A stretch of 64,000 nt of DNA from an uncultured Fretibacterium sp. (GTDB taxonomy: Bacteria; Synergistota; Synergistia; Synergistales; Aminobacteriaceae). Under the pieces are notes generated by a model. It searched no databases, was not told the DNA's origin, and worked only from the letters and a program-made list of their open reading frames with translations. This document shows positions 48,696-51,318 of the stretch, piece after piece; the first letter of the stretch is position 1, and each line of letters begins with the position of its first letter. Position numbers and translations under genes: made by a program. The stretch covers positions 861-64,860 of the forward strand of contig CALCEM010000027.1 in the NCBI GenBank assembly GCA_937900285.1, given 5' to 3'.

Positions 48696-48776
48696 AATTT
48701 AAACACCTCCCGAATTGGGAGATATTATAAAAAAATCATCATAATTTGTGAAATTGAAAATTTATTTTTTTAATCA

Positions 48777-48790
48777 TGGTGGAGATAAGG
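48777..48790 (-). repeat. 14-bp copy of the tRNA-Ala 3' end (putative distal att site)
   Basis: TGGTGGAGATAAGG is identical to 51242-51255, in the same orientation. Confidence 0.85.
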
Positions 48791-48839
48791 CGTAAGGAAA
48801 CAAAACCGCGACTAAAACCTACTTGCACTTTGCAGATTT

Positions 48840-49760
48840 TTATTTTGCGCCGGCTCTTGTTAGAAGCCGTATGCATTCGTTCCAATCACGTATCAAGTCA
48901 TTACTGCCATTGTGTTGCCTGACGTATTCCAACATAACTTTGGCATATTGCAGAGCGGACACAGGCATCCCTAAAAAGCACATTCCTTTGTTGACATCAG
49001 CACCGGCCTTTATCAAATATTCGATTGCTTCAAGGTTGGGTCGTACTGATAATTCGTCGCCTTGTACAGCTAAACTTAAAGCCGTGCTATTTCCTGATAC
49101 AGCATTTATGTATGTGCCAGCTTCGATCAAGGCTTTTAACGCTGGTATATTATTACATCCAGCCGCATACATTAGAGCATTCATCCCATAACTGTCAAAT
49201 TTATCTTCCATACCTGCGTCGATGAGAGCCTCTATAACTTTAGGGTCTTTATTGAGTTTTGCTGCTTGAAAAAGAGGGTTGCTTCCGGCACCAATTCCCA
49301 GCTCTATGAACTTTTTTACGACTTGCGCATTATTATAACCTGCAGTCGCATTAAAAAGCATAGACAGCTGGTAGTCTTCAAGCCCTCCAGGATGTCCAAG
49401 ATAAATTAAAGCTGCAATAACGTCCGGGTCTGGATTGTATTTTGCGACAAGTTCATACATATGGTAGTACTCAATGTCAAAATTCAGTCCGGCATCAAAT
49501 AGAGCCTTAACCACGCTGAAATTGTGCTTCTTGAGGATATACTCTGCAGCCGAGTTTCCCGCTTGGTCTCGGGCGTTCGGGTTTGCTCCGTTTTTCAGAG
49601 CTTTGATAATTTCCTGGCCTGAGCCTTGTGCGCAAAGTTCCAGAAATTCATAGTCTGGCTGCGCTTTGTCAGCGTTTTTGAATCTAGCTGCCTCTGAAGC
49701 CTGAGCTGCTATAACCACAAATAGCAACACAAAAATTATTACTTTTGAAAAACTTTTCAT
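48840..49760 (-). CDS. Exported ankyrin-repeat protein
   Basis: Signal peptide MKSFSKVIIFVLLFVVIAAQASEA. Several ANK units, for example GANPNARDQAGNSAAEYIL, NALMYAAGCNNIPALKALIEAGTYINA, and IEYLIKAGADVNK. Confidence 0.85.
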   Translation of the reverse strand: MKSFSKVIIFVLLFVVIAAQASEAARFKNADKAQPDYEFLELCAQGSGQEIIKALKNGANPNARDQAGNSAAEYILKKHNFSVVKALFDAGLNFDIEYYHMYELVAKYNPDPDVIAALIYLGHPGGLEDYQLSMLFNATAGYNNAQVVKKFIELGIGAGSNPLFQAAKLNKDPKVIEALIDAGMEDKFDSYGMNALMYAAGCNNIPALKALIEAGTYINAVSGNSTALSLAVQGDELSVRPNLEAIEYLIKAGADVNKGMCFLGMPVSALQYAKVMLEYVRQHNGSNDLIRDWNECIRLLTRAGAK

Positions 49761-50155
49761 ATGCTACCTCTTAATGTTTTCACCATCTCTAATTGTTCGT
49801 AAGCTCCCTGATGTCCCAGTTGAGCCGCCTGTAACCAGTATTTAACAGCATCTTCTCTGGCTCGCATTTGACGTGCCTTTTCATCAGCTTCCTTTCTTCT
49901 AATGGTGTTCATATCATCATTTTGGGATATGTTTGGACTCCGAGGTCTTGACCAAGACCATTCCTTATTACCCAATTCATAATAGCCTTGGGCAGCCTGC
50001 GCTCTCTCTGCCGGATCTGATGAACTTGCGAGTGACTGTAATTTTGCTAAATGCTTCTGGCGTTTCTCATTCCACTTTGCATCAATTACTCGCCCTATGA
50101 CAAATAGTGCTACGCCTACTACTGCAACTACTATTATTGACCATTCCTTTTCCAT
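49757..50155 (-). CDS. Membrane-anchored protein with Sel1/TPR-like repeats
   Basis: The ATG at 50155 lies 8 nt after AAGGAGG. TM helix WSIIVVAVVGVALFVIG, then AQGYYELGN and VKYWLQAAQLGHQGAYEQL (Sel1-like). Its stop overlaps the ankyrin gene start (ATGA). Confidence 0.6.
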   Translation of the reverse strand: MEKEWSIIVVAVVGVALFVIGRVIDAKWNEKRQKHLAKLQSLASSSDPAERAQAAQGYYELGNKEWSWSRPRSPNISQNDDMNTIRRKEADEKARQMRAREDAVKYWLQAAQLGHQGAYEQLEMVKTLRGSI

Positions 50156-50168
50156 AATACTAACCTCC

Positions 50169-50438
50169 TTAAGAATCAAACTTCAATCTTCCGAGAGAAT
50201 CAAAAAATTCCTTCTCATACTTTGAACGAATCTTCCAATGAGAGCCTTTCAGCTTCAACCTTTTGCTTATCTCAGGATAAACACGCTCGTCATCTCGATC
50301 AAACGTGAAAACATTTTCAACACTCAAGCAATGTCTGCCATCTGTCTGGCCTTCTGGTAAATCTTTCTGGAAAAAGTACGTGCCGACAACTCTGCCGATC
50401 GTGACCTTGCTTGAGCCACCAAAAACATATACAATCAC
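50169..50438 (-). CDS. Small hypothetical protein (about 89 aa)
   Basis: Open frame with no internal ATG. Candidate GTG start at 50438 lies 9 nt after GAGGA; the ORF track uses the TTG at 50447. No family recognised. Confidence 0.35.
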   Translation of the reverse strand: MIVYVFGGSSKVTIGRVVGTYFFQKDLPEGQTDGRHCLSVENVFTFDRDDERVYPEISKRLKLKGSHWKIRSKYEKEFFDSLGRLKFDS

Positions 50439-50443
50439 AATTA

Positions 50444-51016
50444 TCAATCCTCATTTTTTGTTTTTATGGTTAATCTTTTATTTTTATCTATTTTTTTAGA
50501 TAGCTTAACTTTATCAAACACTTTTGCTTTTTTGGACATAATGCTTACAGCTTCTTTCATTACCGAATCATTATGTGTTTCGTGGAACTTTTTTGATGAT
50601 TCGTCAACACTGTAACTGTAAATCAAAGGACCACTAACAGCACTAAGAGAACTAGACAGGTTCTCATAAAAACGGGCATGTGCCAAAGCATATTTTTCAC
50701 CGTCAGAAGTAAATTCATAGTAATACTCAGCATGGTTAATGATTGAAGCTTCTTCCCGTGATAAGCCGTAAGAAGATACAAGATAATCTATAAATTTCCT
50801 TCTAACGCTGGTGTGAGGATGATATATATCCACAGGAGCAATGACAGCAAATGGTAGATCATTTTCATCTATGCCGTAATCCAATAAACCAAACCTCTCT
50901 GACAACTGTTCGTACTTCTCTAAAATATCATACGTCCCGGTATAAAAATCTGCGTTGCAAAGAGAAGCGGACAACATGACAAAACACAAAACTAACCCAG
51001 ATAAAAATTTGTTCAT
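50444..51016 (-). CDS. Secreted hypothetical protein
   Basis: 190 aa. Signal peptide MNKFLSGLVLCFVMLSASLCNA and a lysine-rich tail. RBS GGAGAA upstream. No family recognised. Confidence 0.6.
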   Translation of the reverse strand: MNKFLSGLVLCFVMLSASLCNADFYTGTYDILEKYEQLSERFGLLDYGIDENDLPFAVIAPVDIYHPHTSVRRKFIDYLVSSYGLSREEASIINHAEYYYEFTSDGEKYALAHARFYENLSSSLSAVSGPLIYSYSVDESSKKFHETHNDSVMKEAVSIMSKKAKVFDKVKLSKKIDKNKRLTIKTKNED

Positions 51017-51074
51017 AGCAATAAATTCTCCTATGTTTCAGAAATAGCTTGATTGTGAATTGTAGCGTATGGTA

Positions 51075-51090
51075 TTTTTTTTTTTTTTTT
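51075..51090. repeat. Homopolymer T16 (A16 on the minus strand) in the leader/promoter region of the islet operon
   Basis: Read directly. On the minus strand A16 is followed by taccatacgc and then TACAAT (51064-51059). Confidence 0.9.
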
Positions 51091-51241
51091 AAGAGTAATA
51101 TTACTTATTTTTGTTCAGGCATGTTAAATTATTTTGATTGAGATTGAAAAACAAAAAGCTACCCCCCTGAAACTGAGAGAAGCAACCTTAACTTTCTTTC
51201 TATGCTTATACGACTCGTGATATTTAAACTGCGGTTTTATC

Positions 51242-51318
<77 letters not shown>

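Follow-up and report, generated by a model that had tools for sequence, protein, structure and literature searches.

A 64,000-nt stretch of DNA from an uncultured Fretibacterium sp. (GenBank assembly GCA_937900285.1, contig CALCEM010000027.1, positions 861 to 64,860; hereafter the window) was found to carry a four-gene islet at positions 48777-51255, bounded on both sides by the terminal 14 nt of a tRNA-Ala(GGC) gene. The islet is probably an element of the kind known as cis-mobilizable elements (CIMEs), devoid of an integrase of its own, inserted at the 3' end of the tRNA gene, served by a family of P4-like tyrosine integrases and stranded in its present host, whose assembly is here called G000.

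A repeat of the tRNA-Ala(GGC) 3' end bounds the islet

The original prediction, made from the window sequence, had proposed that the last 14 nt of the tRNA gene occurred at both ends of the interval in the same orientation, and a position search, ARAGORN and Rfam agreed on this point. The sequence TGGTGGAGATAAGG was located on the plus strand at both 48777-48790 and 51242-51255. ARAGORN placed tRNA-Ala(GGC) at 51242-51317 on the minus strand (Rfam RF00005, 70.1 bits) and, consequently, the copy at 51242-51255 corresponds to the 3' end of the tRNA, including the CCA. The identity between both repeats is exactly 14 nt and stops there on both sides. The whole G000 genome (1,775,994 bases; 1.78 Mb in 82 contigs, 97.5% complete) contained only these two copies of the 14-mer, no third copy was present in the window when up to one mismatch was allowed, and just 0.01 copies were expected from dinucleotide-preserving shuffles, indicating that the repeat is neither frequent nor fortuitous.

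The enclosed interval is occupied by four open reading frames (ORFs) encoding proteins of 190, 92, 140 and 306 aa (A190, B92, C140 and Ank, respectively), all of them on one strand, as had been predicted, namely the minus strand. A pilC-pilin-SPFH operon flanks the islet on one side and an epimerase gene with a glycosyltransferase cluster on the other. The deviant base composition attributed to the interval held for one part of it only: the Ank-C140-B92 part, with a GC content of 0.422, ranked among the top 2.9% of genome windows, whereas the value for the whole islet (0.393, versus 0.360 for the genome) was equalled or surpassed by 11% of the genome windows of the same size. The ends of the islet are direct repeats of a tRNA end, its termini have no other copies in the genome and no transposase is present, features which do not correspond to those of a transposon, an insertion sequence or a miniature inverted-repeat transposable element. 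The features of the region are as follows.

51242-51317, minus strand: tRNA-Ala(GGC), complete, with the CCA encoded; its 3' part forms the attL side, and it is 100% identical in many congeners
51242-51255, plus strand: proximal 14-nt core (attL core), the last 14 nt of the tRNA
51153-51241, minus strand: left arm (P'), part 1, a tRNA-trailer-like hairpin and intrinsic terminator that travels with the islet
51017-51152, minus strand: left arm, part 2, with the cassette promoter, the leader and an A16 tract (51075-51090)
50444-51016, minus strand: A190, 190 aa, with a signal-peptide-like N-terminus and without known domain
50169-50447, minus strand: B92, 92 aa, an in-frame internal-deletion derivative of a 160-161-aa family
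49757-50179, minus strand: C140, a small membrane-anchored protein (start at 50155 and 132 aa according to gene callers)
48840-49760, minus strand: Ank, a 306-aa ankyrin-repeat protein with a signal-peptide-like N-terminus
48791-48822, plus strand: right arm (P arm), 32 nt conserved as the inner terminus across the element family
48777-48790, plus strand: distal 14-nt core (attR core), the displaced tRNA 3' end
48696-48776, minus strand: native flank, the pilC leader, with a promoter-like site and a hairpin

The right border recurs in front of different flanks and in other species

When 107 genomes of the family were searched for the 14-mer followed by 17 inner bases, the only other carrier was G097, a metagenome-assembled genome of a Synergistales congener; no further copies of the P arm were found in G000 or, G097 apart, in the 107 family genomes. 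The 14-mer together with the inner 32 nt (48791-48822) recurred in G097, in the European Nucleotide Archive (ENA) contigs L094, L095 and L051, and in Logan contigs. On contig C134 of G097, the homology to the window (88% DNA identity with 48777-50056, covering C140 and Ank) began exactly at the 14-mer, outside of which lay a tRNA trailer and an acetyltransferase gene, and no pilC. At the protein level, Ank of G097 was 84-88% identical to that of the window, although frameshifted, and C140 was 69% identical. A larger part of the islet was present in L094, where A190, B92 and a C140/Ank fusion, 74%, 95% and 83% identical in amino acids, respectively, were followed by the P arm, the core and a third kind of outer flank, the DNA being 82-87% identical to the window. 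For both G097 and L094, the homology stopped exactly at the outer edge of the distal core.

The 46 nt at 48777-48822 were also found joined to unrelated interiors. This was the case of L051, whose interior encodes small ORFs of 70, 109 and 207 aa bearing no relation to the islet, and of short Logan contigs from three metagenome runs (X1-X3), which matched solely 48777-48812/48822 and diverged afterwards. One X1 contig carried the pilC flank and the core of the window and a different interior past 48812, a hint that the site can be occupied by other sequences in a close relative. The native flank at 48696-48776 was unrelated to the outer flanks of G097, L094 and L051. Altogether, the unit recurred in at least four other sequence contexts and preceded at least three different outer flanks, namely the pilC leader, a trailer with the acetyltransferase gene, and a trailer with DNA resembling a serine recombinase remnant. 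The distal copy had been predicted to be an attR-type scar, and the recurrence of the core and the inner 32 nt with other outer flanks identifies it as a genuine junction of this type, as judged from the sequence comparisons.

The core genes of G000 and G097 have diverged far more than the islet. The tRNA-Trp/secE/nusG/ribosomal-protein cluster was 66-71% identical between both genomes and pilC was 70% identical, in comparison with the 88% shown by the islet. This difference implies that the islet is much younger than the split of the species and points to its horizontal spread between them. A viral origin was considered and rejected, as the junction pattern had no match in IMG/VR and the islet has no phage genes.

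The left border and the structure of the unit

The left arm consists of two parts with different relatives. Part 1, which includes a terminator-like site at 51189-51155, is homologous to the trailer of tRNA-Ala in G021 (z = 10) and to that following the distal core of G097 (z = 5); about a dozen congeners have similar trailers after tRNA-Ala(GGC), and the displaced cores of G097 and G011 are followed by such trailers too. Part 2 (~140 nt, comprising a promoter-like TTAACA-18-TAATAT at 51127-51098, the A tract and the leader) is homologous to a region on contig C28 of G011, located behind a 52-nt displaced tRNA fragment and a terminator (z = 14).

In L095, a trailer-promoter-A190 block 78-80% identical to that of the window was preceded by the interior of another element, a P arm and the 14-nt core, with no tRNA, and in L094 the block running from A190 through Ank to the P arm and core sat before a second trailer. 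From these two arrangements it follows that the unit is core / trailer-like terminator-promoter-A190-B92-C140-Ank-P arm / core. A further contig, L096, opens at the first base after the core and runs on through the same left arm (78-80% identical). The reading of the trailer as native DNA, and of the islet as lacking a left border, was dropped in view of L094 and L095, which show the unit with cores on both sides; although the first ~90 nt behind the tRNA look native, sequence comparison assigns them to the element, which corrects the earlier reading. Plausibly, the left arm originated from the capture of attR-side host DNA by imprecise excision.

The A tract differs in length among the copies, from A16 in the window to A11 in contig C28 of G011, A10 in L096 and A6 in L095, and is 7 nt shorter in an X2 contig; its length in the cassette leader may set the strength of the promoter.

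On the other side of the islet, the pilC leader contains a near-consensus promoter-like site (TTCACA-17-TATAAT at 48752-48724) directly followed by a terminator-like hairpin at 48726-48702. This hairpin, within the flank 48696-48776, stands at the usual distance of a trailer behind the distal core. The flank was probably the tRNA trailer of this lineage originally and serves as pilC leader today, and the former tRNA terminator may have been reused as a structure of this leader; the hairpin contains the Shine-Dalgarno sequence of pilC. A search of the arms against Rfam returned the tRNA and a sub-threshold tmRNA_permuted match, and no other non-coding RNA.

Neither the islet nor its host encodes a tyrosine recombinase

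The absence of an integrase from the interval, part of the original prediction, was confirmed by scanning the four proteins with Pfam, NCBIfam and PADLOC, which revealed no integrase or other recombinase, no excisionase and no transfer gene. A search of G000 with PF00589 detected no tyrosine recombinase, and tblastn of the same genome with five P4-like integrases and seven Xer-like proteins gave no match. The sole serine recombinase of G000 is a large, prophage-borne one, on contig C57 at ~24.8-26.3 kb, and contains an in-frame TAA after about residue 43.

As a side observation, tyrosine recombinases, XerC/D-like proteins included, were missing from G000, G001, G002, G012, G013 and G014, even though G012 is 100% complete, and Xer-like matches at 1e-40 to 1e-51 were obtained in all the other families of the order.

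tRNA-Ala(GGC) as an integration hot spot of the genus

The original prediction had suggested a search of the genome for tyrosine integrases next to other tRNA-Ala copies; G000 yielded none, and those described here are from congeners. In these, genes of one integrase family start 0.1-0.3 kb after the full tRNA-Ala(GGC) or after a partial core; its members are 45-65% identical in amino acids and show the Arm-DNA-bind_3, Phage_int_M and Phage_integrase domains of P4-like integrases. Intact copies were found in G003, G011, G015, G022 and G101, and decayed ones in G005 and L051. The partial cores measured 14, 15, 17, 24 or 52 nt and every one of them ended at the CCA. Several genomes held two or three copies, and tandem arrays were evident in G011, G022 and G101. 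In L051 and X1 contigs, moreover, the P arm and core of the islet type stood directly before a P4-like integrase or its proximal arm. On the basis of these sequences, one family of tyrosine integrases is considered to have its integration hot spot at tRNA-Ala(GGC) within the genus.

Many assemblies break near this gene owing to the hot spot: tRNA-Ala(GGC) lies a few hundred bases from a contig end in G079, G080, G009, G016, G096, G098, G020, G006, G095 and G084 (loci L055-L077). The surroundings of the gene also vary, since it follows ffh-rpsP-trmD-rplS in G003, G005, G012 and G081 (L016, L020, L019 and L093, respectively) and a glycan-synthesis cluster in G000, from which we concluded that the tRNA neighbourhood has been rearranged within the genus. 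Frameshifted large serine recombinase genes, pointing at the tRNA, lie directly behind the tRNA-Ala(GGC) trailer on contigs C62 of G089 (L083) and C25 of G092 (L086); they are a second kind of element remnant at this locus.

The cargo

The scans with Pfam, NCBIfam and PADLOC recognized ankyrin repeats in the cargo and nothing else. Ank is a plain ankyrin-repeat protein (Pfam Ank_2, 2.1e-23). A190 had no Pfam or NCBIfam match and only 4 relatives in 5.8 billion protein clusters, in addition to two secreted paralogues within G000 (contigs C60 and C82), and its AlphaFold model, with a predicted local distance difference test (pLDDT) score of 42, was unusable. B92 lacks about 72 aa internally and in frame with respect to its 160-161-aa family (P0006-P0008). 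The model of the 161-aa form of this family (pLDDT 60) retrieved nothing from the PDB at E<=0.001 using Foldseek, the best-shaped match being a YTH domain with a template modelling (TM) score of 0.31. C140 contains one membrane helix and has few relatives, and a stretch of it matches a motif that occurs 13 times over in a protein of 1641 aa. Taking into account the ankyrin repeats and the repeat motif of the anchor protein, we would guess, with low confidence, that the cargo has a role in protein-protein interactions in the envelope or outside the cell.

The four genes, predicted to encode exported or membrane proteins, overlap or abut behind one promoter and would be expressed as a single operon from this predicted promoter of the element. 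Their content varies between copies: C140 and Ank are fused in L094, L097 carries B161-Ank without C140, and Ank is frameshifted in G097. Such differences suggest that selection on the cargo is weak or changing.

At positions 3812-7616 of contig C28 of G011 (L052), the 52-nt fragment and the islet-like promoter are followed by genes for a membrane protein of 473 aa and for two secreted proteins with Sel1 repeats; by sequence, different exported repeat proteins hold the same position in another species.

How the islet may have moved

The original prediction, which viewed the interval as an integrase-free island of the tRNA 3' end that had decayed or else was cargo mobilised in trans, gained support from the conserved terminus, the identity between species, the hot spot and the lack of tyrosine recombinases in G000. 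According to the interpretation that we consider probable, that of a CIME-like element, the islet would have entered by site-specific recombination between its own site (P arm-core-P') and the tRNA 3' end. Catalysis would have been provided in trans by the P4-like tyrosine integrase that occupies tRNA-Ala(GGC) in congeners, and the islet could have moved in the form of a free circle or, with greater likelihood, in cis, within a tandem array shared with an integrase-bearing element. The partner would later have been excised or lost, leaving the islet stranded in its present host. As in a CIME, attL and attR flank the islet, the borders being backed by the breaks of homology in G097, L094 and L095, and no integrase, excisionase or transfer genes are present. 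Tandem arrangements relevant to accretion and mobilisation occur in L095, L051 and the X1 contigs, and this arrangement, together with the spread between species, would fit the accretion-mobilisation of CIMEs. With regard to a descent from an integrative and conjugative element (ICE) or an integrative mobilizable element (IME), the islet contains no conjugation, relaxase or integrase remnants, no intact parent was found, and the P arm is common to the L051 and L095 elements, whose content is different.

Several observations weigh against this interpretation. For this species no empty site, in which tRNA-Ala would run straight into the pilC leader, was found: a single further contig carried the exact PilC protein and was identical to the window, and the window epimerase gave no record match that would provide same-species contigs. 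The surroundings of tRNA-Ala(GGC) in 12 congeners had no flanking gene in common with the window, and for this reason they do not permit an empty-site comparison. The excision joint from 48790 to 51256 was not seen in Logan contigs, although assembled contigs drop rare forms. An integrase could still lie to the left of the G097 and L094 copies, whose left ends are beyond the contigs. No intact element was found in which a P arm of the islet type and an integrase form a single unit, and the proposed link to the integrase family derives from adjacency in arrays. In addition, 14 nt is short as an identity block for integrases of this type, the GC deviation of the whole islet is not significant, and the left arm resembles chromosomal trailers and the post-attR region of G011, so that the unit may be in part captured host DNA.

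Instead of a mobilisable unit, the islet could be a dead remnant, that is, what is left at the right end of an island which was once complete, with an integrase, and which has stayed in place since the loss of that gene, an explanation that we regard as unlikely. The copies in other species would then go back to an intact ancestor that was transferred and decayed in a similar way, or would reflect later insertions at the tRNA that displaced the islet. It would agree with this that neither the islet nor G000 has an integrase, that a newcomer inserting at the tRNA could also generate the L095 layout without any movement of the islet, and that arrays of degenerated elements and partial tRNAs are known in Prochlorococcus (bioRxiv 10.1101/2020.12.28.424599). 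The deletion in B92, the frameshifted Ank of G097 and the C140/Ank fusion of L094 also speak of ongoing decay. Nevertheless, the integrase-less left end is common to G000, L095 and L096, which means that the loss predates their split, and yet the unit is found before at least three different outer flanks. The 88% identity of the islet between species, compared to 66-71% for ribosomal-protein genes, is equally difficult to accommodate.

We see as quite unlikely a further explanation, by which the islet would represent a class of miniature integrase-less cargo cassettes, made up of a terminator-promoter, a few genes and a ~32-nt P arm and actively shuffled through tRNA-Ala arrays by resident integrases or serine recombinases. 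By analogy, these would be the integron cassettes of tRNA islands, including the exchange of cassettes behind one flank, at which the X1 contig hints.

The same mobile unit could also have relied on a large serine recombinase as its helper, with the ~50 bp formed by the P arm, the core and the start of the trailer as attachment site, in which inverted half-sites (GTCGYGGTTTT / AAAACCRCGAC) would lie about 29 nt apart; this appears highly unlikely to us. An 11-nt, 91% complementary inverted repeat with arms 29 nt apart does surround the core in L095, the same motifs are visible in the P arm of G000 and in the trailers of G000 and G021, and the frameshifted serine recombinase genes of G089 and G092 follow the tRNA-Ala trailer. 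But this repeat is short, with an estimated ~0.07 occurrences expected by chance per junction, and at the same threshold it was not detected in L094 or G097. Serine-recombinase DNA in G089 and G021 starts past the trailer terminator rather than at the tRNA end, and partial cores of variable length all ending at CCA are typical of tyrosine-integrase islands. No element carrying both that recombinase and the P arm was found, nor does the islet have a recombinase gene at one end, as large-serine-recombinase elements do.

Finally, a chance 14-nt repeat next to four ordinary chromosomal genes has a negligible probability, since, in spite of the A190 paralogues elsewhere in G000, the GC content that is not clearly deviant and the resemblance of the first ~230 nt behind the tRNA to what follows tRNA-Ala, or the displaced copy of it, in G021 and G011, the repeat is far rarer by shuffling than its two genomic copies, the 14-mer and 32 inner bases are found again in five further sequence sets, in which the homology ends at the 14-mer, and no relative was found by synteny to have these genes at the tRNA, contrary to the possibility, raised in the original prediction, that all of them did.

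Relation to known elements

CIMEs have been described among the ICESt1/ICESt3-related islands of Streptococcus thermophilus and in the tRNA-Lys arrays of S. agalactiae, and they spread when an incoming element joins them by accretion and the composite is then mobilised (PMC5704250). Like the islet, they are bounded by attL and attR, lack integration and transfer genes and lie in tandem with integrase-bearing or decayed elements at a tRNA 3' end, and in both cases accretion and mobilisation of the composite would account for spread without an integrase of their own. The islet differs from them in its host, an uncultured member of Synergistales, in its size (2.45 kb and four genes), in the lack of conjugation or relaxase remnants and in a left arm made of a trailer-like terminator and a promoter; both its mobilisation and a descent from an ICE or IME are putative.

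According to the established model, used in mapping by Islander (PMC4383910), tRNA islands restore the tRNA gene that they split, and the displaced fragment marks their far end. The islet shares with them the regenerated, intact tRNA and the displaced 3' fragment in direct orientation at the far end; in contrast to what this approach requires, it has no tyrosine integrase gene inside, and its displaced fragment is just 14 nt long. The tycheposon arrays of Prochlorococcus (bioRxiv 10.1101/2020.12.28.424599) resemble the situation reported here in the serial integration at one tRNA, the partial tRNAs that act as separators, the cargo-only remnants and the fragmented integrases, but they belong to another phylum and involve another integrase family, while in our case the same integrase-less unit, with conserved termini, is present in several hosts.

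A parallel for the left arm is offered by phage lambda. The dgal and dbio forms of lambda are derivatives of the specialised-transducing type that arise from imprecise excision. If DNA on the attR side had been captured in a similar way and the integrase side lost, a host-like left arm containing a trailer and a promoter would result; here there is no phage context, and the likeness concerns the inferred origin.

Significance

The islet belongs to a known kind of element, that of the Streptococcus CIMEs and the tRNA-island arrays, the new details being the taxon, the small size and the left arm composed of a trailer and a promoter, and it leaves the concepts of island biology unchanged. What it provides is a precisely bounded, very small and recombinase-free element, flanked by att sites and present across species borders in uncultured members of Synergistales; mobile elements of this phylum have hardly been described so far. 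For the tRNA-Ala(GGC) hot spot of the genus, a likely helper integrase family can now be named, and defined att sequences are at hand for tests of integrase specificity.

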